This document shows positions 4,440 to 42,840 of a stretch of DNA of 64,000 bases, one piece after another (within the stretch, counting starts at the first letter, position 1; each line of letters begins with the position of its first letter). Source of the stretch: Takakia lepidozioides (taxonomy: Eukaryota; Plantae; Bryophyta). The notes below the pieces were generated by a model that was given only the letters and a program-made list of their open reading frames with translations, ran no database searches and had not been told where the DNA came from. The stretch lies in assembly GCA_030704615.1 (NCBI GenBank), contig CM060731.1:66030001-66094000 (forward strand). The letters run 5' to 3'. A program made the position numbers and the translations under genes.

Positions 4440-4545
4440 CTCCTTCCTGCATCATTTGCTCAAGAGTAGGAAGGTCTGCAAAGCCTCCATCCCACGCCCC
4501 TGCATATCCTGCGATCATCGCGTTCCATGACACAACATCAAATAG
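4440..4545 (-). pseudogene. PPR motif fragment
   Basis: LFDVVSWNAMIAGYA ... LEQMMQEG is a single PLS-PPR motif fused to unrelated sequence. Confidence 0.6.
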
Positions 4546-4611
4546 ATGGTGAAATGCAGGAGACAAAAAAGCCTAAGTCCCAGCCCGGTGAAAAGTTCAG
4601 CGGTGTAATCT

Positions 4612-4668
4612 TAAACCGTTAGATCTTAAACAATCTAGACCGTTAGATCCTGTAAAATCTAACGATTC
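4612..4668 (-). promoter_or_regulatory. Cluster of MSA-like (TCTAACGG) motifs
   Basis: CCGTTAGATC occurs twice (GATCTAACGG on the minus strand), plus AATCTAACGA on the plus strand, within about 55 bp. Confidence 0.3.
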
Positions 4669-16975: not shown

Positions 16976-18359
16976 CATATCATTTGTTTATTATCAATTC
17001 TCGTGGGCTAGATTGCAGTCTATGACAAAGGAGGACGAGATCAGGAGTTGAGATTCTCAGCAGGTTGCTACGCATACTAGTTCGTTGTTACAAATTGATA
17101 TGTATATTGTGGATGTGATTGGTGGGGATTTTACTAGAGCAGATTTGTTGTACTGCTCCAACGTTGAGGATATATACATAATTTGCGTCATCAGGTCCAA
17201 GTCAGCGCATGGGTGAATTGGAACGGCCAGCAAAACATAAGGACCATCCGGAGCGAATCTTGCTCCGGAGAATCTCAAATTGAAGTTGAATAGGACTGGC
17301 GCCCTCTGAAATGTCCAACCATAAAGGTTGGTCACGTGAGGGCCTTGCATAACGAAGGCATGTACGAGCAAAATTTCAGTTGGAGGCATATGGGTATTCA
17401 CCTGGCCTCCTCCGGAAACGTACATTTGGAACAATGCATCCTCATGTCATCGGATGCGGCTACACAAACTTCACGTTTGAGTCTTTTCTAACATGCACAT
17501 GATCAGTACATTGTCGTCTTAAAAAATCAGAAGGCTCACCTTGAGATTGATGAAGATGGCGTGACTTGTGAAGGGAAGCCGACAGTTCAGCTTATAGGTA
17601 TTATCATAGACCGAGTGATATATGGTTCATGCAGAGGCTCATGATGCCTCCTAAAAGGATGTCTGTGCAGAAGAATAGTAACACCATCCTTGTACAATAT
17701 GAAGCCCCTTGATTCATTCTGAAGTACTCCAAAGAATATGGGATCTGTGTTCAGTAGTTGCTTTTACAACACCTTTCTCTCTCAACATCACTCACCCACT
17801 CCGGGTCAAGTTGATTTACTTGAGAATCGGTTCCTCTCTATCTATGCTCTCATCACCTTGTGCACTCTCTATGGTGTGTTGGCGGGGATAGCTGGCGATT
17901 GGTAGAGTTGTCTACCCAATGCACACCCTACCGCAATTTGCTTGGGTCCCGTGTCGTGCGCATACATATCGCTACACAACTACATCGTTGTCCAAAACCA
18001 CACAACACATATGCACACCACACACTAGTATCCCACTAGTCCACCACTAGTCCAGCCACTAGTCCAAACACTAGGCTACAACTAGTCAGTCACTAGGCTG
18101 CCACTATGCTGCCCACTATGACAGTCACTAATCCACACAATAGCCACAAGATGTGATAGTGACCATAGCCTCATTAAATCCTCCACCACTGTCCCTACTA
18201 CACTCAAACTCGATAGATCAAGAGGCCGGGTGCAAGAGTTGCCCCATCGTAGTCGCCGTCTTGCAACCTGTGAAAACTTGAGCCTGGGATCTCGTGTATT
18301 GATTCCTATGAGCTTGGCCTCCATGTCTTGTTAGCTGCCTCTAGTCATGTCCACTGCCA

Positions 18360-18578
18360 TTATCCCAAGCAGTGTGGACATAACCAATCTCCATCAGGAA
18401 CCCTCTCAAGAGGTGGTGTCAAGCATCCCATATGCCAACCTCTTGAGCATCGATCACACACCAGCATGGTGGCTGCCTCTTTGGCAGACCCACAGAGCAT
18501 GCACCTCAAAACTGCAGGTACCACTGCCCAAGTTGGGTCAACTCTGCCATCAACATGGGAAGGTGACATGGCGCACAA
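18360..18578 (-). pseudogene. PHD finger at the integrase C-terminus (copy 1)
   Basis: CMLCGSAKEAATMLVCDRCSRGWHMGCLTPPLERVPDGDWLCPHC has the complete C4-H-C3 PHD pattern. Confidence 0.92.
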
Positions 18579-18619
18579 TTACGCACATGGTCCTTCCAAG
18601 TCATGCCATCCCGACCCTC

Positions 18620-19600
18620 CTAGATCAGGACTCCTGAGGGCAACATCTCTCGAACCCTCAGAATAACACGCCCTGCAGTGACATCCAGGGTTGTAGGAGC
18701 AGTCTGCTGCAAATAAACATAGTCACCAGGGCTAAACCTCCGAACCCCAGGACGATATCCTCCACCACGTATAGTGGCATACCTCAACGTATCACGGTGT
18801 TGTGCAATGGCAAGGTTCTCAAAAGCCATGGGCATGACTTTCTTGAACAACTCTGCACGCTGACCACATACACGTACCCACACGTCTGGATCGTCAAGGT
18901 TAAGGACTTGAGCAGTGTCCCTACGAATGGCTGCACGCAAATCCGGCTCTCGGCCTGGTGAGAAGGAGGCAAGTGATGCTTGCTTGCTGAACCTGTAGCC
19001 CATGGCTAACCAAGGTACCTGAAGATCCCAATCTCCTAGGTATCCCTTCTGCAAGCCGTACTTGTGCAAACCCCTCTTCACCGTCTGAACAACTCTCTCT
19101 GCCAAGCCATCGGCCTCAGGATGATCCCGAGAAGTGGTGCGATAGTCTATCAAGGCTTTATCACACAAAGCCTGAAACTCCCCCCAAGAACTTTCTCCCT
19201 TGGTCCGTGAGTACCTCAGCTGGAGCACCGAATCGGCTAAGCACACGATCCAAGAATGCATACACAGCCCCCTCACTAGCCTTGTCAGGAAATGGAACCA
19301 ACTCAATCCACTTGGAGAAGTGCTCCACCATCACCAACACATATCTGTGGTGGCGCATAGTTAGTGACAACGGTCATGCGAAGTCAAGACTCCACCTGTA
19401 GCCCAATCCCATGATTGGTAAATGATGCAACTGTGGTGTAGGGGCGTTGAATGAAGCACGCACCCTGTTATACACCATGCACCTAGCCACGAACTGTTGC
19501 ACCTTTGTATACATACCACACCACCAATACTGCCCCTGCAGTAAACTGTGAGTGCGTCGCACTCCAAAATGCCCCAACTCCTCATGGACATGCCGCACTA
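18620..19600 (-). pseudogene. DDE integrase (copy 1), frameshifted
   Basis: HEELGHFG...CMVY zinc-finger region, WSLDF, LTDQG, HPEADGLAERVVQTVK spread over several ORFs. Confidence 0.9.
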
Positions 19601-20099
19601 ACTGTGCACGCTGTGTGGGGTGGGGAAAAATCCTCACCCGACCATCATCCCATACTCGGAGCAGGTGTATCCCCTCCCACTTGAACCTCTTGGCTCGTTG
19701 CAGGATCCGATCTCTTTCCCTGGCAGTCACAGTGGCTGCCGTGTCTCCCGTGTGGAGGTAGTCCAACACAGCTGAATCCTCATGTATATCTCTGACACCA
19801 CCTGGCTCATCATTAGCCTCAGGGTCCTCAGACACTCCGTCTATAGTCATCCCTGTTGTAGGTCCAACCTGACCTCCCGATGCTAAGATACACAAAAATG
19901 CAGATGCGTGCCATCCCGACACCATCTCCTCGTCCGTCTCACCATGCCACCGAGCTCCAGTGTCATCCTGCTAGCTCGTGCAGATGGTGTCGGCGACTCA
20001 CCATCGATGCATTTTTGTGACCAAACCCGGGATGGTCAACCTGAAAATAAACAGGGATGACTATAGACGCAGTGTCTGGGACCCTGAGGCTAATGATGA

Positions 20100-21340
20100 A
20101 GCCCATCAACCACTTGAGTGGCTGGTGATCCGTGACAAGGTGAAGAGATTGTCGTATAGATAGCACCTGAAGTGTGCCACGGCCCACACTGCAGCTAAGC
20201 ACTCTCCCTCATATGAGCTGTACTTAGCCTCTGCAGCGTTGTTCGAGTGGCTAGCATAAGCCACTACGAACTCTCTTCCCTCATCATCCACCTGTGTGAG
20301 CACCGCTCCAAGCCCCAGCATGCTCCAATCCGTATGCAGCTGAAAGGGACACCCCCTAATAGGTCGTCTCAGGATGGGCGCCGAGGTCAACCTCGCCTTG
20401 AGCTCTTGAAAAGCTCGTTCCTGCTCATCTTCCAACTGCCACTCCTGGTCCACCTTGGTCAGCTTGGTTATAGCCTTTGCAATGGCACTAAATCCCTTGA
20501 CAAACCGTCTATAATAGTTTGCCAACCCCATGAAAGCTCAAACTCGGCTCACATCCGTGGGGCGTGGAATTTGTGCACTGGCCTCTACTTTAGTCTGTTG
20601 TACCCCCAATCCTCCAGGATATATCATGTGACCCAGATACTCAATCTGGTTGTGGAAAAACTTGCATTTCCCCAGATGCAACTTCAATCCGTGCGCTCTC
20701 AAGCGCTCCAATACCACCTGAAGGTATCTCTCATGCTCCTCCACTGTAGCACTAAAGATGATGATGTCAACTATGTAGCACCGAGCAAAGTCCACCCCTG
20801 CTAGAATCCTATCCATGACTCTCTGAAACTCTGCAGGAGCGTTGTTAAGCCCAAATGGTAAGAACCGCCACTGATATAGGCAATCCTTGCCGTGCTCATT
20901 GATCCCCCAGAATGCCGTCTTCTGCTTGTCCGCCTCTTTGATCGGCAACTAGTGATATCCGGATCGTAAATCCAAAGTGCTAAAGACCTTAGCATGCCCA
21001 ATGGCATCAAAGATCTCCTCCGGTGTTGGCATGGCATACTTATCGGACTTGGTTTGACGATTTACAGGCCGGTAATCACCGCACATACGTCTCTCCGTCC
21101 AATAGCCATAGACATCCTTCTTGGCTGGCATCACTGTGGCTCAAGCATACTCTCCACCAAAGAGCTCCACCAAACCAGCCTCCCAGAGATCTTGAGTCCT
21201 CATCTGAATCAAAGACCACTCCATGTCACTGTATCTATAGGGTCTCCGAAAGATTGGCGTGTCAGTGGCCAACTCAATACAAATCTCTTGACCCTTCAGT
21301 GCTCCCAAGTCCTTCAAGTTGAAGGCAAAACAATTCATGT
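20100..21340 (-). pseudogene. Reverse transcriptase and RNase H (copy 1), interrupted
   Basis: RMCGDYRPVN, FSTLDLRSGYH, LPFGLNNAPAEFQ, CYIVDIIIFS (YIDD mutated), YLGH, LHTDWS, YSSYEGECLAAVWAV. In-frame stops are present. Confidence 0.93.
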
Positions 21341-21799
21341 AAGCCCTCAGGAACCACCGTATACGTCGTCTCTCTCCTCCGGTGACAATGGGTCCAATGT
21401 CAGGCTCCCAATTGTCCTCCGTAACTGCAACCTTAAGTCCAGTGGGCTTAGAGGTAGAGGACGCGTCCAGTGGTTGCTATGTTGCAACCTCTTGAGCAGT
21501 ACTCCCTGCCTGCTCAGTCAATGACAAAGCCTCATCCTGCCCCATCATCTCATCCTCGAGGACTTCCTCAACCCGAGAAAAATCCCCAACCTCATCCATC
21601 ACCGCCGCTTTGGCTGCCAACTCCCTCTGAACCTCGAGCACCTCCCACGTGTGCCATGGATGCCTACACCCCGTGGTCCTTACATGCTTGCCCCCACTCA
21701 CTGCCTGTACCGTCTCGGTAGGCAGAGAGACCATCGAGGGAAGTGTACTCCGCACTCTGCGTTGCTCAGCCATAGCCAAGCTGATAATCCAGGTCAAGC

Positions 21800-22720
21800 A
21801 ATTGAGATCCATTGCTTGCCCCAACACCTGACGACGTGATGCCTCAGAAAGAGACGGCACCGCCGTGGTACCAATGGTAAAACCCATTGCCCGCTCACGC
21901 TCGTCAGTATTAGGCTCCACTAACTGCTGCAACTGAGCATCCCACAAGAGGCCAGGTCCACTATTCCGGAAAGCATGCGATCCTGGGAAGCTGAGCAGTG
22001 TAGGTAATGCTACTTATGGTTGACCCACCTTGTTGACCACTGCCAAAGGCGAACGGTCATCGTGTCTCACACGCTGAGACTGCCTCCCTGTGTCCAAAAT
22101 GCTATCCACTATGAGGTGTGCTGGCCGCTGCACCCCATCAAATGCACGCTTGAGCAGTGCGGGTGGCATCAAGTTAGTCCACCATAGCCGTGGACGATGA
22201 GCCCGTGACCCCACTGTAGCTGCATCTAGCAACACTGCTGACCCAAGCCACAACCGGACTTGATACATACTGGCCATCACCCTGGCCCGAGAATCGCCCA
22301 TCAGTGGCACATTCTCCAAGATGTATGCTGGAGATACAGCTTGATGAAGCTGCAAGTGGCGCAAAACCCGCACCATCTTCCAAAACAGACCCGACCTTGA
22401 TTCTCGCAATCCATTGCCATGCCCGGCTGATGAATGTCCTTGGCAGGGCCAACCTGCCACTACTAGATCAATGGAGCCAACCCGCTTGCGCCCCCAGCAA
22501 CGAAATGTCTGCTGGCAAGGCCTGGTGATATCCACAAACTGCAGACACTGGCAACAACTCAGGGTACTGCTGCACCAACTGAGCAACATGGCGAAGTGAA
22601 ACGTGTCGTGCAGTCTCATCCCTCTCCGCATATAGATAATGTCGAACTCGTACACCTGCCTGTAACACAGCAGCCAATCCGGTGCTGATCCCGCCAAACA
22701 AGTCCAGAAGACAAATGCCT
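21800..22720 (-). pseudogene. DNMT3-like C5-cytosine DNA methyltransferase domain inside pol (copy 1)
   Basis: Motif I LLDLFGGISTG, motif IV DLVVAGWPCQ, motif VI YILENV, motif VIII RAHRPRLWWTNL, motifs IX-X ERERAMGF...RRQVLGQAMD. One frameshift (~22490) and one stop (22014-22016). Confidence 0.92.
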
Positions 22721-23129
22721 TCATCCGGATACTGCCACACAATAGGTGTGGTGTCCAATAGAGACCACTGAGGTGGTCCTGGTGCAATCCCCGCAATCTC
22801 CTCCTCTCCTGATGATATAAAAGTCTCTACCCAGGCTTGTTGCACCTGTTGATCAGCAACCTGCTGCAAATCCTTGCTCGTGCCCCACAATGGAGTCTGA
22901 GCAATCATGGCAGGCAACTCCGCCATACCATGCATGTCATCCTGCGCTCCCGGAGGTGACACATCCTCTGAATGAGCGTTGCCCTCAAGCAACTCTCCAG
23001 GCCAACTCACTGCAGCTGTGAATGCTGCTAGTGTCGGCATCTTGCCTCGCTGGGCAACCGCAACTCCTCCTATGAATGTCACAGGGAACTGCACACGCCG
23101 GTCCTCCCTTGATTGCCATCCAGGCCTAT

Positions 23130-23540
23130 ATGAAGCTGACTCCTCCCAAAAATCCAGGGTGAAGCCCATGGGGTACAACACTGCCCCACCAACCAGGACA
23201 TCGTACGAGACCGCATCTGTCACAATGGCCTTGGCTCGCATCACTGAGCCATCTGTAGGGTGATCCGGCCGTAGTCTGATAGCCAACTCACACCGTGTCA
23301 TGCCCCGAGCCTGCTCCGATCCTCCCAGAGATGTCTGTATCTGGAAAGGACAAGGCTCCATATCCGCCTCTGTGAGGCCCAAGCCTGCAATAGCAGCTCT
23401 GCCCAACATCAATGGTTGAGCTCCCGAGTCCAACAAGTCCCACAGTGGCCGGTACCTCTTGTCTGCCGGTCCACTCAAACAGAAAATGGCATCCTGGTTG
23501 TCTAACATGACAACTCCAGGTATCACCATGGCGCGCTCAA
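23130..23540 (-). pseudogene. Aspartic protease (copy 1)
   Basis: LLDSGAQPLMLG active-site motif and downstream YDVLVGG..L, in frame with DNMT motif I (ORF 22468-23661). Confidence 0.85.
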
Positions 23541-24124
23541 TGGCTGGCCTAACTGGCAACTCCATCAACCTGACAGCTGCAGCTTGCCATGGCGTCGCCG
23601 TGGCAGTCTTGACCCTCAAATCCGAGGATCCCTCCGGCACTACACCTCCCACTATCTCCACAGAAGATTAAGTAACCTCCCTACTCTCACAAAATGTAGC
23701 TGCCAGCCTGAACACCTCAGCTGGTCTTACCCCCGACGTCGCAATCATGGTAGCCGAGAACAATGGAGCCTGACACACAGATGTGGCCGCTCCCAGCAGC
23801 ACACTAGCTGCCGTAGCCTTGGCAACACTAGGTAGTGGTGCTACCCGTGTAGCTCTCCCCAATGGCATAGTAACCTCCGCCTCGGTAACAGTTGGGAAAG
23901 AACTAGGTGCCATGGATGGCGTCGACACTATCTCCGCCAATGTGAATAACTGAGGGAGCCTAGCCTGACGGCTTGCCTCCCCACGCTGTAGATCCAACTC
24001 CGCCTCTGCACCTCGTGGCTCAGGAACTCGTGCTGCTCCTCAAGTCACGGCTGCAGCAGACTCCACCTGCACTACTGGTAGTGCTGCTCCGCACATGAAT
24101 CCCATGTCTCCCATATCTCCTCCC

Positions 24125-25090
24125 TCAAGAGCAGGGAAGTGGTGTCTCCTTAGCAAATCCCACCATGACCATGTTGAGCTCTATCCGCTCTGCTAGCAAA
24201 AACACATTTGCTAAGGTGGGTTGGGCCGCTTGTAGGAGAGTTGCATCCCACACCCTTCTCCTCAGCTCCTTGTCCAATATCCCATACCAAAATTGGACTG
24301 CTTGAGCTTCCGTAATCCCTTGGGTTACATTTATCAAGCGCCTCATGCGAGTGAAAGCCTCTCTCAAGCTCTCAGTCGGCTTCCGTTGGAACTCTTGCAA
24401 GCTCCGCAACTTCTCTGTCCTCATCCCTTGGTAGTTCCTTCTTAACTCTTCGAAGAACTCCACAACAGGGTTGAAGGCAGGCACCGCCACTGGTGCTAGT
24501 GCAGCAGTAGCTTGGGTGGACGTCGTAGCTACGGTATCACCAGTCCTATTAGTCCCACTGCTGCTTGCTGAAGCTGCCGGTGCAGCGGCAGGTGTAGCCA
24601 CTGCCCTCGTGGCTCTAGTGCCCCTAGTGATGGAGACATAGTCGGGTGACCAGTACATCCTCCACTCCTCGATCTCAACCTCATGCCCCCGCCTGAACTC
24701 ATGGTAATCATCCATAGGCGGCCCCTCAAGGTGCTGAAACAGCCCCTTCCATGCCATGAAAGACGTAAATAGTTGTGGATTGCATATTTGCTGCAAATCA
24801 CACCAACTATCAAACTCTTGGATAAAATCATCCAACTCGATGGTGACCACTGCCCCAGAGTACCTTCGTGGCCGCTTGGTAGCTCCATAGATCTCCTCCA
24901 TTGTGTCCCATAACAATGACAAGGAAATAACTTGCACCGCCGGTGTGAGTCCTCCTGATTCACAATCCGAATCCGAACCTTCCGTAGAAGACACGAGAGG
25001 TGAAGGTGGCCTAAACCGCACACCTCGTCTCGTGTACCCACTAGTATCGCTAGTGCTCAAACCGGCACTGTCCCCAGCAACTAGTGGCAC
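24125..25090 (-). pseudogene. Gag (capsid-like) ORF (copy 1), nucleocapsid region deleted
   Basis: RYSG...LDDFIQEFDSWCD and LQEFQRKPTESLREAFTRMRRL...QFWYGIL resemble retrotransposon Gag. The CCHC knuckles seen in copy 2 are missing. Confidence 0.8.
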
Positions 25091-25839
25091 CTTCGTGTTG
25101 ACAAACTGTCACTCAACCGGTCATGAACATGTCCCTAACCCCCTCTCCACAAGGTAACTGGGTAGAGAACCTGTTGCGGCTTATGGTTTGGAATACTAGG
25201 TTCTTAACATAGCCTACACCTGCACCTGCATCCACCGCAAGCACTCATATGGTTGGCTGGTCATCACCTCCAACCTCACCACAGGAGAAACAATGATGAC
25301 TGACTGGTCATCACCCCAGCCTCACCAGCGACAGCATGCTCTAGGACTGGCCGGTGATAAAATCCGGACCAATCACCTATAAAAACAAGCGCCCACACAA
25401 AACTAACATGGCGCACGGTCAAGCATGCAGGTATGGAGGGGATCCAAACACAAGAAATCAGAACGACAACTCCCCCATACCAAAAACAACTCCACGGTGT
25501 TGCTCCTGCAAGGATACCCCAGCCCAAACCCGAACTGACTCTTGCCTCCACCTACGGAAAGGTCTTGGCCTAGTGAGAGGGTGGAAAACTACGAGGAAGA
25601 GAAGCTAAAGCAATGCCTAACCCCAGCATGCCCTCATCCCAACACTCTTTTTCTCATCTCTTCCCTCACTTGCATGACCATGGAAATATCATGAAGATAC
25701 TCCTCAAACCGCCCTCCACGAGCTTCAAAATGCGGCCTTCAAGACATGCCAGTCCTTAGGCAGTCCACCAGTGCTTCCACGAGTCAGCACAAGCCGTCCA
25801 CAGATCAACACGGGCCACCACAGACCAGCACAGGCCCAC

Positions 25840-26350
25840 ACAGATCACTGGTCACAGCCATCACAGCCCCACACAGGCCACAGCCTGTCACAGCCCTACA
25901 CAGGTCACAAGGTCACAGCCCCACAGGCCACAGCCTGTCACAGCCCCCAAGGCCACAGGTCGCAGCCTGTCACAACCCATCACAACCCCAAAGGCCACAG
26001 GCACAGCCTGTCACAGCCCTACACAGATCGCAGGGTCACAGCCCCAAAGGCCACAGCCTGTCATAGCCTGTCACAGCCCCTCACGGCCTCTCACAACCCT
26101 ACACAAGTCACAGGGGTCACAGGGCACAGCCTGTCACAACCCCTCACAGCCCGTCACAACCCCACAGGCCACATGGCACAGCCCCTCATAGCCCCACAGG
26201 CCACAAGGCACAACCCACCACAGCCTGTCACAGCCCGCCACAGCCCATCACAGCCCATCACAGCCCGTCATAGCCCCACAAGCCACAGGGCACAGCCTGT
26301 CACAGCCCCTCATAGCCCATCACAGCTTGTCACAGCCCCACAGGCCACTC
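25840..26350. repeat. Short-period minisatellite (GTCACAGCCC / CACAGGC) in the copy 1 leader
   Basis: Dozens of imperfect tcacagccc/cacaggccacag units. Confidence 0.9.
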
Positions 26351-26809
26351 ATGACAGTTTAGCCATTTCTCCAAGGGGTTTAGCCACGCCAAGCTAGGGT
26401 TTGTGTCTCTTGGACTCTAGGCTTCTTTGCACCGAGCTATGGTGGCTGTGAAAAAATCAGCAAGGTATTCTTGCTCTTTCGGCTCCCACACACCACCAAT
26501 AGTAGCCCTAAGCCATGAGGAAGATGGTTGCCACAAACCAAGCCTTCTTTCTCACTTAGACTCCCCAAACACGCCACTAAACTCAATGGCAAACAACCAA
26601 GCCTTGCTGGTTTCCAACCCTTGTGAGCACTCATTCAAGCGTTTTCCTTGGCCATAGCATCTGTCTTAGAGCCTATTCTAGCCCCCTACACATGCCACTT
26701 CAAGAGCCATGCTCTATCTAGGCTTGAGGTTGAAACCCCACCTCACATATGCCCTACAAGTGCTTTTCTTTCACCCAAGTGGGAACCAGCCCTAGCCCTT
26801 CCATTCTAG

Positions 26810-27180
26810 CTCTCTAAAGCTTGAAAACAAAAGCCCAATGGACTGAAGGCATGCTCCACACATGCCCCACTCCCACCATAAGAGAATCAGTCCCTTTGCT
26901 TTCTTTCTTGCACCCACCAACCTGAAAATACACGCTTCAGCGGGCTGGAAGCATGCTCCACACATGCCCTACAGGGAAACCAGCCCCTTCTTTCCTTTCT
27001 TGCACTCCCAAACCTGAAAGTACAAGCCTTCAACAGGCTGAAAGCATGCTCCACACATGCATTGCTCTCACATAAGGGAAGTCAGCCCTTCCCTCTTCCT
27101 TGCTTGCCCTCCAAGCTTGAAGATGGAAGCTTCAATGAGCTGAATACATGCTCCACACATGCAACCTCTTCACACAAGAG
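26810..27180. repeat. ~100-bp tandem repeat x4 in the copy 1 leader
   Basis: CATGCTCCACACATGC recurs at about 26850, 26953, 27045 and 27147. Confidence 0.85.
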
Positions 27181-28895
27181 GTATCAACCCCCTATCTTGG
27201 CTCCTTAGCTCCTTGATGCTCTCTAAGACAAGACTAAGCACTCCACAGCTCTTGCCAAGCTCCTGAAACCCTAAGACTTACATTTCCATCCACAAGACAC
27301 TCCTCTTGTGGTGTAAGAGCTCTTCTTCCAAGCTCTGAAACCCTAGGTGCACATTCCATGGCCTTGCCGCACCTCTTAGCTCCTATTCCGGCCCTGCTCT
27401 TGCCATGATAAGAGCCCTCTCAATGCTGAAGCTCGAGATTGAAACCCAATCTCAACATACTCCACAAAGTGCACTGATTTGCCCCAAGCCAAATCAGCCC
27501 TTTCGCTTGGTCTTGCAATCCTTCACACAATGAAAGCTCGCATTCCCAAGGCTAGTCCTCAGCTTTGCCACCAAAGCCACTCTAACCTGCTCTTGACTGG
27601 TCCTCTTCCCAATCGTGCTTGTTCATGCATGTACACAATCTGAAACCATCAAGGTGCTCTGGAATTACCTGCAGCATGGTGCTTTCATCTCTGAAGTTGA
27701 AGATCAAATGCCAAGGTCTACTACCTCGTAACCCACATCGCCTCCGCTTCTAACAACCAAGAGCTCCACGGTGCTCCTTGCATAACAACCTGGTTTCTCT
27801 CATTCTCAAGCAAAAACCACAAGTGCTACAACTAACTCGTATTTGGCACTTACAGATACGAGCTCATCTTTCTCGAGTGATAAAGAAGAATAATACAAGC
27901 ACAAGCTCATGCGAGCTCACAAAGCTGAAGCATAAACTCATGCATATATAACCTCATCACTCAAATACAAGTCAAGCCAAGTGCACCCCACGCCATGGGG
28001 AATCCACACTACGGCGCCATAGCTAGGCGCGGTGAGGCTCAACTCGAGAAAGATGAGCCTCCCGCACTTGCTGTGAAGATAACCACTCCAGGGCCTAAAT
28101 CTGCCTTGACCCCTAGATTGACACTTGGGCCAATCCCAAATGTCAATATGTAAAAGCTAGCTATTTCCTAGCTAGTTTCACACTAGTGGTAAAATAACTT
28201 GACACCCCATTCCAAAGATACATTTTGGCAATTTCACCGTGCTTACCACAAGGTCAGGCCTAGACGATCTGCTGGAATTCCTCATGGTGGTGGTGGTGAC
28301 AGTGGCGGCAATAGTGGTAATGGTGGAGGCAGTGGGGGACCCGAGTGTAGGTGCTGGGGGTGTAGGTGGGGCTAGTACTAGTCTACATCTAGTGCTAGTC
28401 GACATCTTACATGCAACAACAAAACAAATCAAATAACAAAGATGACACCACGTCGAATACGGCCCATTGCAGATACCTCCGGTCTCATTTCATAAAACAC
28501 TACAACTTTACAACTGCAAATTTGACAGTTGGAAGTCCAAGTTTCAAATTCTTTGAATTTTTTCTCCTTCTTTATAATTCATGTTTATAGGCAATTTCTA
28601 GTACCATAGTTGGACACCTATTAAGTGGGGGATTCAAAGGAAATATTTCCGCGTTAGATTCTATAGTCCTTGATGTGAAATGAGTAACCACCCACTACCC
28701 CACGGTGAGTAGGATCTCCATTTAATAAGACTTTGTCGATGACAGTTTCTTTCTCCTCCCACAGAAGAATCTGCGGAGTATTCTGTAACTACATGAATAA
28801 TGATCTATAGGCACATATATATAGCTTTAACTTGCAGAGCTCTACAATGAGCTCTAACATGTAAATAAATATTTCAAACCCATTTGTGATCTCCC

Positions 28896-29185
28896 TGTAG
28901 TTGTAGTGAATATCTCTTGGACTATGGATAGATTAATTCGTATAAGGAGATAACAATATTTGCACACTTTGATTCAAGTTTCTTTCAAGGGTATTGTAGC
29001 AAAGACAACCTCAAGTCAAAGAAAATAAGCTGAGGTAAGACAATGTGACATTTCAGTCACTGTCTTTCAGCACTTGTCTTGCTTTCCACGAGAGAGAAAT
29101 AGAGAGATATTATCTTCTATGTTGTTCAACTTGAACATGGAAAATGATATTTCTTGTTTAATTACGTGAAATAGAGCTCCAAGTA
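28896..29185. repeat. Third copy of the 16366-16975 dispersed repeat
   Basis: Near-colinear with 16692-16975, including gctttccacgagagagaaatagagagatatta...gagctccaag. Confidence 0.85.
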
Positions 29186-29870
29186 TACGAAGATTTTCAT
29201 GCATCGGAAGCAGATTTTAGCATGGCTAAATAATTCCAATAAAATGACACCGAAGCGACTAGTGAAGCCATCGCCATATCATCATGTTTACCTTGGACAA
29301 CTTGCTAGCATTGTTCAATTTGGTCTCATTTTTAACACAATTTACTCACAATCTAGTGTTATTTTTGCTTTATTAAGTTTGGCTTGCTTTTTATTTTGCA
29401 GTATAACTAGAGTCAACAATACCTTTACCTTCTGCCCCACCATATGAGGCACAGTTAAAAAAATGCAATTCTTGTTTCGCTTCTTCCCCAGCTTGTACCT
29501 CTCACACATGTATCAGAAGGGGTAATTACGTATAATTTGTTTTGGGAATTGCCTCAATGCATGTAACAGTGGATTGATAGCTGACAAAACCATCATTTTC
29601 ATGTCAATGTCCATGGAGTAAATTGCACATTACTTCTTCGTTATGCTTTGATTGTTGTATGGTGTGGCACTACAAAAAATATGCCAATATCATTGCATGT
29701 TGTTTGTTGAATACCATAGCAAACACATCAAATCCACAAAATTTAATCTAAATTCGTTTTCACAACATTGTATAAACAACAAAAAATGATACGAAACTTT
29801 ATGGATGGAAAGGGACATGGGATCTGAGAAAAACTTGAGGTTGTGGAAAGTGGTAATGCACCAACTCCCC

Positions 29871-29937
29871 TGTCGTGCACCTAAGCATCGTGCCACAAGA
29901 TACATCGTTGTCCAACCACACTTCCTAGCGCCACAAT
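29871..29937 (-). repeat. Terminal repeat B2
   Basis: Matches B1 (30270-30356) apart from 3 substitutions and a 20-bp gap. Confidence 0.9.
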
Positions 29938-30267
29938 GATACGGAAATGGTGAAAAGAGGAGAAACCACTCTATCACGTTATATAAGTCAAGCCAATGAC
30001 ACCTTTGCTAAAGGACTCCACCATACAGACCTCACCCACTCCCCATCTCAAGAACTAGAGCTATGGCGGCGAGAGAGGCCTCGGGAGGCTCGACTAGAAG
30101 AAGACGAGCCTGCCTATGGAGATAACCTCCCCACGTCCCAAGTGAGGTTCGCCACCTCACTTGGCACATGGAACCAAATGAAATCCCAATGCCAACAAAA
30201 TACAAATATAAATGTATAATGTCCTAATTCTAACTATTTCTAACTAATCACAAACAAAACCATGACA
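29937..30267 (-). repeat. Repeat A2 (331 bp)
   Basis: Matches A1 (42493-42840) with about 10 substitutions, nearly all transitions, and two indels (9 and 8 bp). Confidence 0.95.
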
Positions 30268-30269
30268 GC

Positions 30270-30356
30270 TGTCGTGCACCTAAGCATCGTGCCACAACAT
30301 ACATCGCTATCCAACCACACTTCCTAGCATATAGTCCTAGAAAGCCACGCCACAAT
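30270..30356 (-). repeat. Repeat B1
   Basis: tgtcgtgcacctaagcatcgtgccacaa...cttcctagc...gccacaat, separated from A2 by the dinucleotide GC. Confidence 0.9.
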
Positions 30357-30619
30357 CGCCCCCCTAGCTGGTGATTAGGTCCCTCTAACACCGGATAGCT
30401 TACAAGTATCCACCCAAATAAGATTATCGCTTGGTCTTCAATCGCACAAGCCCCAACACCTGAAGTCGATAGATCAAGAGGCCGGGTGCAAACGTAGCCC
30501 CATCGTTAGTCGCCTTCATGCAATCCATGATCTTCAGCTGAATATCCATGGCATTGAAATCCCACTAGCTAGACCTTGGATCACTTGTCCGCCTCACCAT
30601 TGTTATGCTCACTACCTCT

Positions 30620-33600
30620 GTCCAAGGCATCGTGGACACAACCATTCTTCGATATGAACCTCCTCAAGTGGCGGTGTCAAGCATCCCATGTGCCACCCCC
30701 TTCAGCATTTGTCACACACCAACATGGTTGCGGCGCCACCAGCATGCCCACATAGCATGCAACGTAACCCTGCAGGTACCACTGCAAGGTTGGGATCTAT
30801 CTTCCCATCCACATGTGAAAGGTGACATGGCCCACAATTGCGCACATGGTCCTTCCATACCATGTCATCTCGACCCTCCAGAATCAACACTCCTGAAGGC
30901 AACACCTCCCTGACCCTTAGAATCATACGTCATGCTGTGACATCCAAGGTCGTAGGCGCTGTCTGCTGCAGATACACATAGTCCCCAGGGTAGAAACGCC
31001 AAACACTTGGCCGATATCCCCCTCCACGTATAGTGACGTACCTCAATGTGTCTCGGTGTTAGGCAATAGTAAGGTTCTCAAAAGCCTTAGGCATGACTCT
31101 CTTGAACAACTCTGCCCGCTGGACACATGCTTGTGTCCATACATCCGGATCATGAAGGTTGAGCACTATTGCAGCCTCCCTACGAATAGATGCAGGCAAA
31201 TCCGGCTCTCGGCCAAAGAGAAGAAAGTAAAGTGAGAATGAGGCAAGTGAAGCTTGTTTGCTGAACCTATAGCCCATAGCTAGCCAAGGCAGCTGAAGGT
31301 CCCAATCTCCTAGGTGTCCCTTCTGCAAACCGTACTTGCGCAAACCTCTCTTGACTGTCTGAACAACTCTCTCCGCCAAGCCATCAGCCTCGGGATGATC
31401 CCGAGAAGTTGTGCGGTGATCTATCAAGGCTTGCTCACACAAAGCCTGAAACTCCCCCAAGAACTCTCTCCCCTAGTCCGTGAGTACCTCGGCTGGAGCA
31501 CCAAAATGTCTAAGCACTCGATCTAAGAATGCATATGCAGCCCCCTCACTTGCCTTGTCCGGCAATGCCACCAGTTCAATCCATTTGGATAAGTGTTCCA
31601 CCATCACCAGCACATACTTATTATGGCGAATCATCAATGGCAATGGGTCTGCGAAGTCAAGACTCCAACGATAGCCCAAACCCATAATGGGTAAATGATG
31701 CAATTGTGGAGTAGGGGCATTGAAAGAAGCCCGAACTCTATCACACACCATGCATCTGGCCACTAACTGTTGCACATCCGTGTGCATGCCCCGCCACCAA
31801 TACTGCCCTTGCAGAAAACTATGAGTGCGCCGCACCCCAAAATGTCTCAACTCCTCATGGGCATGGCGTACCAATCGCGCTCGTTGTGTTGGATGAGGCA
31901 CAATCCTCACTCGTCTATCCTCCCATACCCGGAGTAGGTGAGTCCCCTCCCACTTGAACCTTTTGGCTCGTTGTAGGACCAGATCTCTCTCCTTAGCAGT
32001 CACACTAGCTGCTGCCTCTCCGGTACGAAGGTATGCCAACACTGCTGCATCTTCATGCACATCCTTAGCACCACCAAACTCCTCACTAGTCTCTGGATCG
32101 TCATGCATGCTATCTACATGACTAATCGCATGGGATTGACTAGCTTGAGCTCCCTTTGCTAGAATGCACAAAAAGGCCGATGCATGCCATCCTGGCACCA
32201 TCTCCTCATCCGTCTCACCATGCCACCGAGCTCCAGTATCATCATGCTCGCTCGTGCATGGATTACAACTCAATCCTTCTGCATCCCGATTGACAATACC
32301 GGCTCGATGTACTACCTGGAAGTCGTACTCTTGAAGCATAAGTGCCCACCGTGCAAGCTTGTCTGACTCCATCAACCACTTCAATGGTTGGTGATCCGTG
32401 ACAAGGGTGAAGAGATTGCCATAGAGGTAGCATCTGAAATGTGCCACTGCCCATACCGCAGCTAAACAATCTCTTTCATAGGAACTATACTTCGTCTCGG
32501 CATCATTGTTCGAGCGGCTAGCATATGCCACTACAAACTCTCTTCCCTCATTATCCACCTGTGTGAGCACTGCTCCAATCCCTAGCATACTCCAATCCGT
32601 ATGTAGCTGGAAAGGCCGCCCCCGAATAGGCCGCCTCAGAATAGGTGCAGAAGTCAATCGAGCCTTGAGTTCCTCAAAGGCTTCCTCCTGCTCCTCCTCC
32701 CACTGCCACTTATGACCCACCTTGGTCAACTTGGTAAGAGCCTTTGCAATGCTACTAAATCCCTTGACAAACCGTCGATAATAGTTTGCCAATCCCATGA
32801 AAGCACGAACTCTGCTCACATCCATGGGACGTGGAATGCATACAATGGCCTCCACCTTTGTCTTTTGAACACCCAATCCTCCAGGATATATCATGTGGCC
32901 CAGATACTCAATCTGATTGTGGAAGAACTTGCACTTTCCGGGGTGTAGTTTCAACCTGTGCGCTCTCAAGCGCTCAAACACCACCTGAAGGTATCTCTCA
33001 TGCTCCTCAACCGTAGCACTAAAGACAATGATGTCATCGATGTAGCACCGGACGAAGTCTAGCCCCGCGAGAATCCTATCCATGACCCTCTGAAAACTCT
33101 GCAGGAGCATTCTTCAACCCAAACGGTAAGAACCGCCATTGGTACAAACAATCCTTCTCATGTTGGTCAATCCCCCAGAATGCTGTCTTTTGTTTGTCAT
33201 CCTCTTTGATTGGCAACTGGTGGTAACCAGATCGCAAGTCCAATGTGCTAAACACCTTTGCATGCCCAATGACATCAAAGATGTCCTCTGGAGTTGACAT
33301 GGCATATCTATCGGACTTAGTCTGACGGTTCACAGGACGATAGTCCCCACACATCATTCTTTCTGTCCAATTGCCATAGATATCCTTTTTAGCTGGCATC
33401 ACCGTTGCCGAGGCATACTCCCCACTTGACAATTCCACTAATTTAGCTTTGAACAACTCCATAGTCCGTGACTGGATCAATGACCTTTCCATGTCACTAT
33501 ACCGGTAGGGCCTTCGAAAGATTGGCGTGTCACTTGCCAAATCAATACGAATCTCCTGACCCTTCAAACTCCCCAAATCCTTCAATCCGAAGGCAAAGCA

Positions 33601-33822
33601 ATGCCTATAAGCCCTTAGAAATCGCTGGATCCTCCGTCTCTCTCCTCCGGTGACTGTAGGTTCAACATCTGATTCCCAATTGTCCTCAGTGACTGCAACC
33701 TTGGGTACACCAGGCTTGGAGGTAGGAGACGAATCATTTGGTTGCTGTAACCTGCCCAATCTGACTGTGGCGTAGCCTCCACTTGCTCCACCATAGCCAT
33801 CTTGAGAACATCCTCTGAGCAA
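30620..33822 (-). pseudogene. Pol RT-RNaseH-integrase-PHD (copy 2), interrupted
   Basis: MCGDYRPVN, LDLRSGYHQ, CYIDDIIVFS, LHTDWS, HEELRHFG..CMVC, WSLDF, EADGLAERVV, CMLC...CDKC*RGWHMGC...WLCPRC. One frameshift near 33090 and several stops. Confidence 0.93.
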
Positions 33823-33826
33823 GAAA

Positions 33827-34646: not shown

Positions 34647-34949
34647 AAACATTCTCAATCTCTTCAAAAACCTTGGTCACCTTGGCCTCCAACTGATCCT
34701 CAGTCCATGGCTCTTCCCACTCCTCATACTGCTGCTTGAGAGATCCAATAACTCTCTCTTTGCGCATCTCATCTCACATCTGCCATGGGTGTTTGCAACC
34801 CACGATCTTATGCTCGCCCCCACTCACTGCCTTAACCGTCCCGGTTGGCAAAGATGATGCACTATCCAATGGGAGTGCAGAAGTAGCCATCAATGCTTGC
34901 AATCTCCGTTGCTCAGCCATGCACAAGCCAATTATCCATGTCAAGCAAT

Positions 34950-35876
34950 TTAGATCCATTGCTTGACCCAACACTTGACGGCGTGATACCTTTGACAGAG
35001 CTGGCACATCGGTAGTGCCCGTGGTAAAACCCATTGCCCGCTCTCGCTCATCTGCATTGGGCTCCACCAATCGCTGTAGCACACTGTCCCAAATCAATCC
35101 AGGACCATTGTCTCGAAAAGCATGAGACGAGGGAAAGCTCATGAGCGTAGGCAAGGCCGCACGTGGCTGCCCCACTCGATTGACCACTGCTAGAGGTGGA
35201 CGGTCATCATATCACACCCTCTGTGGTTGTCTCCCTTGGTCCAAAATGCCCTCAACCGTGAGATTGGGTGGCCGTTGAATGGAATCGTATGCTCTCTTGA
35301 GCAGCTCTGATGGTGCAAGATTGGTCCACCACAATCGAGGTCGATGCGCGCGTGATCCCACCGCTGCTGCATCCAATAGCACCGCCGATCCAATGCAAGA
35401 CCGCACCTGATGCACACTGGCCATTACCCTGGCCCGAGAATCCCCCATAAGAAGAACATTCACCAAGATATAGTTTAGAGGTTGCACTTGCCTCGTCTGC
35501 AAGTCCCGCTATACTCGCAACATCTCCCAAAACAAATGCGATCGTGCATCATGCAAGCCATTCCCATGACCTACGGGAGAGTGTTATTGGCAAGGCCATC
35601 CGGCTATCACCAAGTCAATGGCACCATGCCGGTCCAAATCATCCGCCCCCAGCAAGGTAATGTCTGCTGGCAAGGCCTTTTGATACCCTTGAATTGCTGA
35701 GAGAGGCAACAACTCAGGATATCGGTGTGTGAGCAAGGCAATGTGGCGCATAGAAATACGTTGAGCTATCTCATCATTCTTCACATACAAGTACTTGTGT
35801 ACTTTAATCTCTGCTTGCAACACTCCTGCAAGCCTAGTGCTCATGCCTCCAAACAGGTCTAGCAAACAAATCCCTG
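34950..35876 (-). pseudogene. DNMT3-like C5-cytosine DNA methyltransferase domain (copy 2)
   Basis: LLDLFGGMSTR, IDLVIAGWPCQ followed by a stop, YILVNV (ENV mutated), RAHRPRLWWTNL, ERERAMGF...RRQVLGQAMD. Confidence 0.92.
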
Positions 35877-36269
35877 AGTCAGATGGTTGTCAGGTAATGG
35901 GCACCGTGTTCAAAGGAGCTAACTCAGGAGGTCCAGATGATGTCACTGAACTCCTTTCATTCACCAATGGAAAGGCCTCCTGCCATGCTTGGTGCACACA
36001 CTCGTCTGCTACTCAATGCAAATTCCCAATCGTACCCCACAGTGGAATATGCACAGGCACATGAGAAAGCAAATCAGCCTTGTATGCCAATTGTTTGTCC
36101 TCATCAGGTGATGGCCTATCATCTGCATGGCTATTGCCTTCCAAGAGCTCACCACCCCAAGCCACTACCCCTGAAAATGCAGCCAATGTGGGCATCATGT
36201 TCCTATGATCCACTGCTACATTCCCAATAAACCGCACTGGGAGTAGTGCACGTCGGCCATCTCTTGACT

Positions 36270-36680
36270 GCCATTCCGGCCTGTAGGATGCCGTTTCCTC
36301 CCAAAAGTCCAGAGTGAATCCCATGGGGTATAATACCGCCCCACCAACAAACTCATCATAAGACATCGCGTCCGTAACAATGGCTTTAGCTCTCATGACT
36401 GTGCCGTCCATGGGATGATCCGGCTGCAATCAAATGAAGAGCTCATGACGTGTAATTCCTCATGCCTTCTCTGAACCACCCAAAGATGTTTGAATTTGGA
36501 AAGGGCAAGGCTCCAAATCCGCCTCTGTAAGGCCCAAGCCTGCAATTGCTGCTCTCCCCAACATCAATGGCTGTGCTCCTGAGTCCAACAAGACCCGTAG
36601 TGGCCTATACCTCCTCCCGGCTGGGCCACCTAACTGAAACACACCATCCTAATTGTCCACCAAGACTACCCCAAAAATCA
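36270..36680 (-). pseudogene. Aspartic protease (copy 2)
   Basis: RVLLDSGAQPLMLG; YDEFVGGAVL; stops present. Confidence 0.85.
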
Positions 36681-37099
36681 TCATATTACGCTCAATGGCT
36701 GGCCTAGCTGACAACTCCTGCAACTATGCAGCTGCCGCTTGCCATGGTGCAGCTGTAGCTGTCTTCACCCTTGAGTCCAGGGCATCCATGCATTGCACAT
36801 TATCCACTATCCCCGCAGATAGTGCCGATGCATCACCACTCTCACAGAGTCTAGCTGCTAGTCTGAACACAGCAGCTGGCCGAATCTCCGGCAATTGCAA
36901 TTGTCATTGTAGAAAATAATGGAGCTTGACAAACAGCCGTAGCCGCCCCCAACAATGTACTGGCTGCACCTTGCTTTGCAGCACCACCCACTGGCATTTC
37001 CCGAGCCACACCAACTCTCCCCAATGGCACTCGTGGCTCTACCTCTGACACACTTGGGCAAACGGGTGCCATCGATGGCGTAGTTGGCACTGTCTCAGC

Positions 37100-41270: not shown

Positions 41271-41289
41271 ATATCCATAGTCAGTCGAT

Positions 41290-42492: not shown

Positions 42493-42840
42493 TGATACAG
42501 AAATGGTGAAAAGAGGAGAAACCACTCTATCACGTTATATAAGTCAAGCCAATGGCACCTTTGCTAAAGGACTCCACCATACAGATCTCATCCACTCTCC
42601 ATCTCAAGAACTAGAGCTATGGCGGCGAGAGAGGCCTCGGGAGGCTCGACTAGAAGAAGACGAGTCTGCCTACGTCTCACGTGGAGATAACCTCCCCACG
42701 TCCCAAGTGAGATTCGCCACCTCACTTGGCACATGGAACCAAATGAAGTCCCAATGCCAACAAAATACAAATATAAATGTATAATGTCCTAATTAGTTAG
42801 AAATAACTATTTTTAACTAATCACAAACAAAACAATGACA
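42493..42840 (-). repeat. Terminal repeat A1 (348 bp), 5' end of copy 2
   Basis: Direct repeat of 29937-30267; begins TGTCA on the minus strand. Confidence 0.95.

Follow-up and report, generated by a model that had tools for sequence, protein, structure and literature searches.

Decayed Gypsy-DNMT3 retrotransposons of Takakia lepidozioides carry an integrase-terminal PHD finger predicted to bind unmodified histone H3 and tether integration

Results

Two dead Ty3/gypsy copies in the window

The window, a stretch of 64,000 nucleotides of the Takakia lepidozioides genome (contig CM060731.1, positions 66,030,001 to 66,094,000), contains two minus-strand Ty3/gypsy copies with the domain order gag-PR-DNMT-RT-RH-IN-PHD. 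The copies are 79% identical in DNA. Their features, in window coordinates, are as follows.

Copy 1
18369..18503, minus strand: PHD finger, C4HC3, 45 codons in open frame; PF00628 E 1.8e-12; pLDDT about 76-84
18554..19970, minus strand: integrase with H2C2 zinc domain, core and SH3-like C-terminal domain; PF17921 E 4e-15
20106..21416, minus strand: RT and RNase H, several in-frame stops
21567..22826, minus strand: DNMT3-like C5 methyltransferase domain (PF00145), interrupted by a stop at 22014-22016
22495..25108, minus strand: gag and protease region; gag at 24125-25108, with a weak PF03732 match under the Pfam cut-off
27818..28147, minus strand: probable 5' LTR remnant, 63-69% like the copy 2 LTR

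Copy 2
29937..30267, minus strand: 3' LTR, TG..CA ends
30627..30761, minus strand: PHD finger, all eight ligands present, one in-frame stop inside
30627..33095, minus strand: RT-RH-IN-PHD in a single frame colinear with an intact relative, 4 in-frame stops
34726..36723, minus strand: protease-DNMT region, 9 in-frame stops
39239..39877, minus strand: gag fragment; PF03732 E 1.6e-4, under the Pfam cut-off
42493..42840, minus strand: 5' LTR, 92% identical to the 3' LTR of this copy

The reading frame of the copy 1 integrase is lost through frameshifts near 19200 and at about 18554, and its tail contains a TAG stop (18620-18622); this stop and the frameshift at about 18554 fall between integrase and PHD. 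The RT-RH-IN-PHD region of copy 2 (33095-30627) aligned with an intact relative over 827 residues at 66% identity. Both copies are dead, and function at this locus is now ruled out for either.

The LTRs of copy 2 are ordinary direct repeats of about 330-350 bp with TG..CA ends, accompanied by no further LTR pieces. A 3' LTR of copy 1 was not found by sensitive blastn in the window. Repeats of 280-290 bp at 16697-16976 and 28902-29188 were rejected as copy 1 LTRs because they are unlike the copy 2 LTR and occur in AT-richer DNA, 0.7-1.2 kb beyond the region homologous to copy 2. CpG depletion, taken as a mark of methylation-driven decay, did not set the copies apart: the observed/expected ratio was 0.46-0.61 within them, not different from flanks at 0.40-0.44. 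These flanks hold coding pieces of a B3 protein (5569-6765), a nucleoside transporter (48173-48562) and a PMR5N/PC-esterase (TBL) protein (61177-63030). The two copies thus lie amid genes, an observation on n=2 insertions that is uninformative on targeting either way.

Both copies belong, in decayed form, to the streptophyte Gypsy-DNMT3 retrotransposon family. Among the relatives listed, the nearest named ones come from Marchantia, Coleochaete, Klebsormidium and Closterium, and Marchantia polymorpha, not K. nitens, supplies the closest of them, with 78% identity over RT-RH.

A canonical PHD finger follows the integrase

The initial annotation placed a C4HC3 PHD finger after the integrase in both copies, and this was confirmed, the first interval being exact and the second one base off. 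The copy 1 finger, read in the minus-strand frame 18503..18369, is CMLCGSAKEAATMLVCDRCSRGWHMGCLTPPLERVPDGDWLCPHC. The 72-residue open stretch containing it (18363-18578, minus strand) matched PF00628 with 47.5 bits (E 1.8e-12), where the curated cut-off is 24 bits. Both copies show the pattern C-x2-C-x11-C-x2-C-x4-H-x2-C-x14-C-x2-C; the copy 2 finger (30761..30627) keeps all eight zinc ligands around an in-frame stop at ..DKC*RGWH... Since the copies are only 79% identical in DNA and dN/dS between their PHD fingers is 0.17 (48 usable codons), the finger is not there by chance.

An AF2 model of the finger, built from 12 sequences and of moderate confidence (mean pLDDT 71), reached pLDDT 76-84 over the finger itself. 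Foldseek searches of the PDB with this model returned 60 matches at E <= 0.001, and all of the 50 matches listed (50/50) were PHD fingers.

The finger is fixed to the integrase across the family

We compared the window copies with the 120 best-listed relatives. A PHD finger is carried by 78 of them. In an alignment of 75 fingers, from elements 37-67% identical to the window query, the zinc ligands were invariant in 75/75. In the 74 proteins with a locatable finger, it starts 36-57 residues, mostly 41-42, past the end of the integrase match. The finger is in frame with the integrase in intact relatives, in line with the linkage initially proposed: in the single-ORF protein P0163 (2811 aa; DNMT 1380-1481, IN 2384-2552, PHD 2765-2808), in the single-ORF protein P0019 (2358 aa) and in ORF2 of locus L001, which encodes RT-RH-IN-PHD. 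Among metagenomic copies the median dN/dS was 0.34 (79 of 136 pairs with usable dS). The PHD finger has evolved under purifying selection, with dN/dS of 0.17-0.34. Clustering of copies was considered as a hint of targeting: of 34 metagenomic loci of at least 12 kb, six had a second family RT or PHD site, a count that has no background rate and in which three loci seem to be the same place.

The finger was also said to occupy the position where chromoviruses carry a chromodomain. A model of an intact relative bore this out, placing the finger about 20 low-confidence residues past the SH3-like C-terminal domain of the integrase. The SH3-like barrel (pLDDT about 90) and the PHD (pLDDT 78-89) are joined by a linker with block-mean pLDDT of 55-60, below 50 at residues 178-184. 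The whole-model pTM is 0.38, so that in the model barrel and finger behave as beads on a string. No chromodomain was found in Pfam scans of the window ORFs and 8 relatives, and PF00385 is absent from the domain lists of the 120 listed relatives.

The methyltransferase is a separate module

The DNMT domain of copy 1 matched PF00145 with E 6e-12 (22014-22826, minus strand), and its solved-structure matches were DNMT3A or DNMT3B in 16/16 cases. This domain occurs at two positions in pol: PR-DNMT-RT-RH-IN-PHD in type-A elements, including the window copies, and RT-RH-DNMT-IN-PHD in type-B elements. The PHD is retained in both architectures.

The finger might serve the methyltransferase rather than the integrase, reading chromatin unmethylated at H3K4 in the way an ADD does and thereby targeting the element's cytosine methyltransferase to it or licensing the enzyme there. 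We regard this as unlikely. The two domains do occur together often, in 41 of the 50 DNMT-bearing proteins among the 120 listed and in 29 of 38 metagenomic loci scorable for both (loci that are not independent), and a DNMT lies immediately upstream, at the DNA level, of seemingly PHD-only proteins such as P0004 (L001, L002). Yet each also occurs without the other: P0065, P0091 and P0115 have a PHD without detectable DNMT despite long N-termini, and a Closterium-like clade (8 rows, 5 with DNMT in the protein) has DNMT but has lost the PHD. In type-B elements, where the DNMT directly precedes the integrase, an uncleaved DNMT-IN-PHD protein is conceivable; in type-A elements RT, RNase H and integrase intervene, and in P0163 about 1,280 residues separate the DNMT match from the start of the finger. 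The finger keeps a fixed spacing to the integrase, whereas the DNMT moves between two positions. In addition, de novo methylation by the K. nitens Gypsy DNMT was not observed in yeast, an outcome called inconclusive by the authors in the text of PMC5890265.

The likeness to the ADD-plus-catalytic logic of cellular DNMT3, drawn in the initial annotation, was not supported as stated there. No ADD domain was present among the best 60 of 135 solved-structure matches, and the finger has the canonical C4HC3 form of a PHD rather than that of an ADD. Because PHD occurs without DNMT, DNMT without PHD, and the DNMT at two positions, "ADD-like reader/writer" is an analogy only. We conclude that the PHD goes together with the integrase and not with the DNMT, which is a separate module of the polyprotein linked to the finger by evolutionary co-occurrence and by no physical cassette. 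The tree came from a quick IQ-TREE search, and the deep branches of the 93-row clade that holds the window copy are poorly supported in their order.

Predicted contacts with the H3 tail

In H3K4me3-reader PHD fingers the cage Trp occupies position -2 relative to the zinc-binding His. The window copies both read RGWH here, with Gly at -2 and Trp at -1, as had been noted from the sequence. The aromatic cage Trp for H3K4me3 is absent in both copies, and Gly takes its place in 66/75 family sequences. The corresponding cage residues are W32 in BPTF and W238 in ING2 (PMC4225485).

Solved structures closest by sequence (best 60 of 135) included CHD4, PHF12, KDM5B/A PHD1, ATXR5, BHC80, DPF3, ORC1b, BAZ2A/B, UHRF1 and AIRE. 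The 50 fold neighbours listed for the modelled finger belong to the same PHD set, most of them superposing on 47-53 columns with an rmsd of 0.7-1.8 A, and include UHRF1 PHD structures with PAF15 and Stella peptides; ING, BPTF and TAF3 fingers were not among these 50. The closest solved relatives by sequence and modelled fold (KDM5 PHD1, CHD4, ATXR5, BHC80, BAZ2A, UHRF1) all read the unmodified H3 tail.

Apart from the zinc ligands, no positions of the finger are better conserved than those that hold H3 A1 and R2 (75 sequences). An Asp follows Cys3 (C-D) in both copies and in 70/75 of the family; its equivalent in KDM5B, D328, forms a salt bridge with H3R2 (PMC4225485). Before the last Cys pair lies a P-x-G-x-W segment, VPDGDW in copy 1, with P in 72/75, G in 62/75 and W in 65/75 family members, equivalent to the P347/G349/W351 of KDM5B that anchor H3A1 (PMC4225485). 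The contact to K4 differs. KDM5B D308 hydrogen-bonds H3K4, and BHC80 contacts K4 through D489/E488 (PMC4225485), whereas the D308 column, placed by sequence alignment only, is Ala in both copies (PAVLRC and PAGLRC). In the family this column is A in 30/75, E in 9/75 and D in 6/75, and the neighbouring column is D in 25/75.

Reading of an unmethylated H3 tail, as first proposed, is therefore supported by the neighbours, the A1 and R2 contacts and the missing cage, but its K4me0 specificity is not, owing to the change from D308 to Ala. With that column Ala in the window copies and variable in the family, the finger may or may not discriminate K4 methylation. The finger itself likely binds the unmodified H3 N-terminal tail.

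A different ligand, whether another histone state, a non-histone protein with an H3-like N-terminus or a host factor for nuclear entry or intasome assembly, seems improbable to us. CHD4 PHD2 is an example of H3 reading combined with K9 methylation, and PAF15 is an H3-like ligand of UHRF1. The missing K4-contact acid in the window copies would fit such a ligand, as would the UHRF1 complexes among the fold neighbours and the loop from Cys2 to the beta-strand, which is acidic in the type-B clade but not in the closest relatives of the window copies, where it is neutral or basic. However, conservation of the finger outside its zinc ligands is greatest exactly where A1 and R2 would be held, and all close neighbours take an N-terminal A-R-T-K-like peptide in the same groove.

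Discussion

Our data point, with fair though incomplete assurance, to streptophyte Gypsy-DNMT3 copies having a PHD-tipped integrase that binds unmodified H3 and tethers integration. The PHD at the end of the integrase would dock on the unmodified H3 N-terminal tail, and the docked finger would tether the integration complex to nucleosomes in the manner of the chromovirus chromodomain. That the finger is instead an inherited passenger or a structural integrase cap with no role in transposition is very unlikely: the finger-less Closterium-like clade still has multiple members and both window copies are dead, but the ligands are invariant across elements 37-67% identical to the window query, dN/dS is low, and the finger is kept in both DNMT architectures.

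Tethering of this kind has a precedent. Chromoviruses likewise place a small histone-reader domain, presumed to be a chromatin tether, after the integrase C-terminal domain (Gao et al. 2008, cited in PMC6673714 and 10.64898/2026.05.21.726589), and chromodomains direct Gypsy integration (Gao 2008, cited in PMC6673714). In contrast, the window family has a PHD, which is predicted to bind the unmodified H3 N-terminus instead of H3K9me. By analogy, the PHD may affect target-site choice. In Chlamydomonas, the PHD-bearing Gypsy-7a_cRei inserted into intergenic DNA 2.6 times more commonly than by chance (PMC9940879).

Gypsy-DNMT3 of streptophytes, to which the window copies belong, has been published before, and so have PHD fingers of green-algal Gypsy elements. 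One Chlamydomonas element with a PHD, REM1, was reportedly described by Perez-Alegre in 2005. The Gypsy-7a_cRei element (Craig et al. 2022, PMC9940879) and the Chlamys PLEs (PMC8557442) are likewise green-lineage retrotransposons with a PHD in the polyprotein; there the PHD is described as a common accessory domain, and insertion is suspected to be targeted. Unlike the present comparison, the text of these reports gives no fixed post-integrase position, no link to a DNMT and no typing of the finger. A Chlamydomonas eustigma protein (P0113) falls in our type-B clade.

Gypsy-DNMT3, or KnitGypsy-Dnmt3, of Klebsormidium nitens (de Mendoza et al. 2018, PMC5890265) is similarly a streptophyte Ty3/gypsy LTR element with an intronless DNMT3-related domain in pol. 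The 93-row clade of the window copy also includes P0076 (PHD 1193-1237), a K. nitens protein named "putative retrotransposon protein". The term PHD has 0 occurrences in the text and three supplement text files of PMC5890265, a search confined to text (Fig. 4c may draw one), and KnitGypsy and PF00628 have 0 occurrences in the supplement text. KnitGypsy-Dnmt3 is described as having DIRS-like split repeats (A-coding-B-A-B; PMC5890265), whereas copy 2 has plain direct LTRs; copy 1 is too decayed to judge.

The idea of an "epigenetic toolkit" has also been published, for EpiLTRs (Fernandez-Moreno et al., bioRxiv 2026, 10.64898/2026.05.21.726589), which combine chromatin reader and DNA methyltransferase domains in one retrotransposon. 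Besides a chromodomain, these elements are described as encoding a DAM adenine methylase and a DNMT that groups as sister to DNMT4, while the window family has a PHD and a DNMT3-like domain and no DAM. Among cellular proteins, the fingers that read unmodified H3 (KDM5B PHD1, 2MNY/2MNZ; BHC80, 2PUY; ATXR5, 5VAB; BAZ2A, 4Q6F; UHRF1; AIRE; CHD4) are 36-49% identical to the window finger, at rmsd of about 1-2 A in the model, and share with it the C-D Asp, the P-x-G-x-W anchor and Gly or a small residue for the cage Trp. They differ from it in the acidic K4 contact, KDM5B D308 and BHC80 D489/E488 in PMC4225485, which is without counterpart in the window copies.

A broader scenario, doubtful but possible, is that an old green-lineage Gypsy clade picks chromatin by an integrase that reads the unmodified H3 tail, that PHD-bearing lineages then captured a DNMT3-like domain at two sites in pol, and that reader and writer were co-selected, the element landing on unmarked chromatin and methylating either its new copy or the DNA around it.

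Two dead copies are all that the window contributes by itself; what is useful is the picture at the level of the family, with a PHD fixed after the integrase, a finger typed as a likely reader of unmodified H3, two positions of the DNMT and one clade without PHD. If the PHD tethers integration, there would be two independent cases of a histone reader that guides the integrase of an LTR retrotransposon, the first being the chromodomain of chromoviruses, and the elements guided by the PHD would also encode a DNA methyltransferase. With reader and DNA methyltransferase in one element, the family would offer a natural system, in early-diverging plants, for a transposon that both picks and modifies chromatin.

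A PHD finger follows the integrase in two dead retrotransposon copies

Parts of a Ty3/gypsy LTR retrotransposon were found in minus-strand stop-to-stop frames at ~18.2-25.1 kb (copy 1) and ~30.5-40 kb (copy 2). Comparison of the window with itself showed that the copies are colinear (18207-26759 versus 30463-42118), with a DNA identity of 73-81%.

Features of the two copies and their flanks
24125-25108, minus: copy 1 Retrotrans_gag (Pfam, weak, below Pfam's cut-off)
22014-22826, minus: copy 1 C5 DNA methylase (Pfam, E 6e-12)
between the methylase (DNMT) and PHD matches, minus: copy 1 RVT_1, RT_RNaseH and Integrase_H2C2 (Pfam)
18369-18503, minus: copy 1 PHD finger, C4HC3 (PF00628 on the 72-residue open stretch 18363-18578, E 1.8e-12)
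27818-28147, minus: copy 1 5′ LTR remnant (weak similarity)
30627-30761, minus: copy 2 PHD finger, C4HC3 (ligand pattern, sequence reading)
29937-30267 (331 bp) and 42493-42840 (348 bp), minus: copy 2 LTRs, 92% identical, TG..CA ends
25819-26350 (copy 1), 40789-41257 and 41386-41583 (copy 2): C-rich tandem arrays
5569-6765, minus: B3 DNA-binding domain coding piece (plant)
48173-48562, plus: nucleoside transporter coding piece (plant)
61177-63030, minus: PMR5N/PC-esterase (TBL-like) coding piece (plant)

The initial annotation had placed a C4HC3 PHD finger after the integrase of both copies, in the chromodomain position, and this was confirmed; the copy 1 stretch scored 47.5 bits against PF00628, for a cut-off of 24. 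Copy 2 is full length, and a sensitive blastn search found no 3′ LTR of copy 1. Since the coding pieces in the flanks are those of plants, the host is a streptophyte. A gap of 750 bp separates the two copies, and genes occur in the same region.

The C-rich arrays consist of CACAGCC-like units that beat at 10 bp and lie, along with ~66-76 bp repeats, between the 5′ LTR and gag, and more repeats of ~100 bp occupy 26780-27190. Repeats of ~190-290 bp, 87-93% identical and in AT-richer DNA, bracket copy 1 (16366-16558, 16697-16976 and 28902-29188), one of them partly duplicated in tandem; a small non-autonomous LTR element may enclose copy 1.

Conservation of the integrase tail extends as far as an A-P-C-H-L-P motif (window ~18555-18580; kept in 80% or more of 74 relatives), which closes the SH3-like integrase domain ~20 residues ahead of the PHD. 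We modeled the last 250 residues of ORF2 from L001, a metagenomic locus, on a 28-row alignment. An SH3-like barrel (121-171, pLDDT ~90) and the PHD (193-237, pLDDT 78-89) were joined by a linker of block-mean pLDDT 55-60, falling below 50 at residues 178-184; the pTM of 0.38 leaves the placement of these domains relative to each other undefined. In chromoviruses a chromodomain, rather than a PHD, occupies this site (PMC6673714; 10.64898/2026.05.21.726589).

Both copies have decayed, and the finger evolved under selection

Both copies are dead. Copy 1 has 8 in-frame stops from RT to integrase (21416-19167), a change of integrase frame near 19200 and a TAG stop in the integrase tail (18620-18622); at ~18554, within or beside the A-P-C-H-L-P motif, another frameshift parts the tail from the PHD. 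The RT-RNase H (RH)-integrase (IN)-PHD part of copy 2 (33095-30627) aligned in a single frame with an intact relative (827 residues, 66% identity) and has 4 in-frame stops, of which one falls within the PHD. Comparison of the two PHDs over 48 usable codons gave a dN of 0.18 and a dS of 1.08, and the ratio of 0.17 indicates that the lineages diverged with the finger under selection. Among 20 intact 45-codon metagenomic PHDs (17 distinct), dN/dS had a median of 0.34 across the pairs with 0.1 < dS < 2 (79 of 136), and 87% of these 79 fell below 0.5.

PHD and DNMT across the family

With the RT-RH-IN frame from copy 2 (546 residues) as query, relatives were sought among longer proteins only. From 7977 scored candidates, 3051 matched at E ≤ 1e-20, and the best 120 of these were re-scored with the window's own domains. 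PHD was present in 78, DNMT in 50 and both in 41, the 33 proteins with neither being animal and seed-plant Gypsy elements. In the 74 proteins with a locatable finger, the integrase match ended 36-57 residues (41-42 in most) before the PHD started. It is in frame with the integrase in intact relatives: in the 2811-aa protein P0163 a single ORF encodes DNMT (1380-1481), RT, RH, IN (2384-2552) and PHD (2765-2808), the 2358-aa protein P0019 holds the entire domain string in one ORF, and L001 ORF2 also preserves the frame.

Within these 120 proteins, DNMT precedes RT, as in the window, in 12 (type A) and lies between RNase H and integrase in 38 (type B), reflecting either two captures or one capture and a relocation. 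PHD was found in 37 type-B and 4 type-A proteins. Type-A proteins P0006 and P0022 lack an integrase match, leaving PHD unscorable, and 6 others, 2 named Closterium ones among them, end 47-101 residues past that match with no finger. Type-B proteins (P0051, P0097, P0113 and others) extend 90-600 unassigned residues beyond the PHD. Closterium-like proteins P0039, P0043, P0044, P0054 and P0066 keep DNMT and lack PHD; precomputed Pfam lists also assign zf-CCHC to P0039, P0044 and P0066.

A quick IQ-TREE search on 118 RT-RH segments grouped all PHD- or DNMT-bearing rows in one 93-row clade (SH-aLRT 100), leaving 25 animal and seed-plant elements outside. Type B formed a 41-row clade (support 100). 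The window copy paired with a protein from Marchantia polymorpha (78% identity, support 89); P0002, found in a metagenome, is the next row outward, and P0001, a transcript from Coleochaete scutata, the one after. The window copy's 35-row group includes the PHD-bearing K. nitens protein P0076. The position of a Closterium-like PHD-less clade (8 rows, support 99) inside groups of PHD-bearing rows reads as PHD loss. A clade including Tetraselmis contains PHD proteins (P0065, P0091, P0115) with 850-1800 residues before RT and no detectable DNMT. PHD is thus the more widespread of the two domains and tied to the integrase. One 1043-aa RT-RH-IN-PHD protein (P0151, P0004 cluster) is filed under 'uncultured Synechococcales cyanobacterium', most likely from a mis-binned eukaryotic contig.

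A metagenome scan built on ten aligned close relatives yielded 80 loci, in which seemingly PHD-only proteins proved to be pol ORFs with DNMT just upstream in the DNA. L001 has gag-PR-DNMT (ORF1, 976-5082) and RT-RH-IN-PHD (ORF2, 5086-8226) in a common frame with one stop between. Both domains were present in 29 of the 38 loci scorable for both, PHD only in 3, DNMT only in 1 and neither in 5 truncated or rearranged copies, many of the 38 being near-duplicates, so that the counts are not independent. The lone stop between the two ORFs (L001:5083-5085; L002:4661-4663) recurs in loci that are 90-95% similar and otherwise open; it could be either a mutation common to both loci or a programmed readthrough setting the product ratio. 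In P0163 and P0019 these parts run on without a stop.

The PHD is predicted to bind the H3 tail

The best 60 of 135 solved-structure sequence matches to the finger included CHD4 PHD1/2, PHF12, KDM5B and KDM5A PHD1, ATXR5, Lid, BHC80, WSTF, KMT2C/D, DPF3/DPF2, ORC1b, BAZ2A/B, KAT6A, UHRF1 and AIRE. The 72-residue open stretch of copy 1, modeled with AF2 (mean pLDDT 71; finger 76-84), retrieved the same set from the PDB, mostly at rmsd 0.7-1.8 Å, several of them bound to unmodified H3 peptides; the 50 fold matches listed include no finger of ING, BPTF or TAF3.

KDM5B PHD1-H3K4me0 contacts, taken from PMC4225485, were mapped onto 75 aligned family fingers. The H3A1 anchor P-x-G-x-W (P 72/75, G 62/75, W 65/75), the H3R2 salt-bridge Asp (70/75) and the peptide-pairing β strand M-L-[LV] are retained. 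R-G-W-H precedes the third ligand pair in both copies, bearing out the annotated Gly in place of the cage Trp of H3K4me3 readers, two residues before the zinc-binding His; Gly holds this position in 66/75 fingers. The K4-contact column (KDM5B D308) is Ala in both copies and variable in the family. The Cys2 loop, acidic in type B, is neutral or basic in the relatives nearest to the window copies.

H3-tail binding is therefore a well-supported prediction from homology, and absence of K4me3 preference is supported. The proposal that the finger reads unmethylated H3 is partly supported: the A1 and R2 contacts are kept, the K4 acid contact appears to be missing from the window copies, and the finger may or may not discriminate against K4 methylation. 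By holding the intasome on nucleosomes via the free unmodified H3 N-terminus, the PHD would bias the landing sites of new copies. We lean towards such tethering and biased insertion, inferring both binding and targeting.

The DNMT domain matched DNMT3A/DNMT3B only (16/16 solved-structure matches); it is DNMT3-like and a module separate from the PHD. The suggested likeness to the ADD-plus-catalytic arrangement of cellular DNMT3 fails as a structural claim, because the finger type differs, the DNMT match of P0163 is separated from its PHD match by ~1,280 residues of RT-RH-IN, the place of DNMT is not constant in the family, and each domain occurs without the other. Given their frequent co-occurrence (41 of 50 DNMT-bearing proteins, 29/38 loci), the two may still be linked more loosely in function, above all in type B, which has DNMT, IN and PHD side by side. 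The initial observation is thus confirmed and its interpretation partly supported.

Relation to known elements

Both copies in the window are dead members of a family already known. Gypsy-DNMT3 has been reported from K. nitens, with a DNMT inactive in yeast, a result called inconclusive by its authors; the available text and supplement text make no mention of a PHD (PMC5890265). EpiLTRs are retrotransposons combining reader and methyltransferase, with chromodomains; the accessible part of the preprint names streptophyte Gypsy-DNMT3 in passing and leaves the PHD finger unmentioned (10.64898/2026.05.21.726589). Two Chlamydomonas studies treat PHD fingers as a common accessory domain of TEs (PMC9940879; PMC8557442), and PHD-bearing Gypsy-7a_cRei shows a 2.6-fold excess of intergenic insertion (PMC9940879). 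Our literature search on integrase-C-terminal PHDs in Gypsy found no paper placing or typing this family's finger. For the Gypsy-DNMT3 family, the PHD tip is thus a genuine feature, conserved yet under-described.
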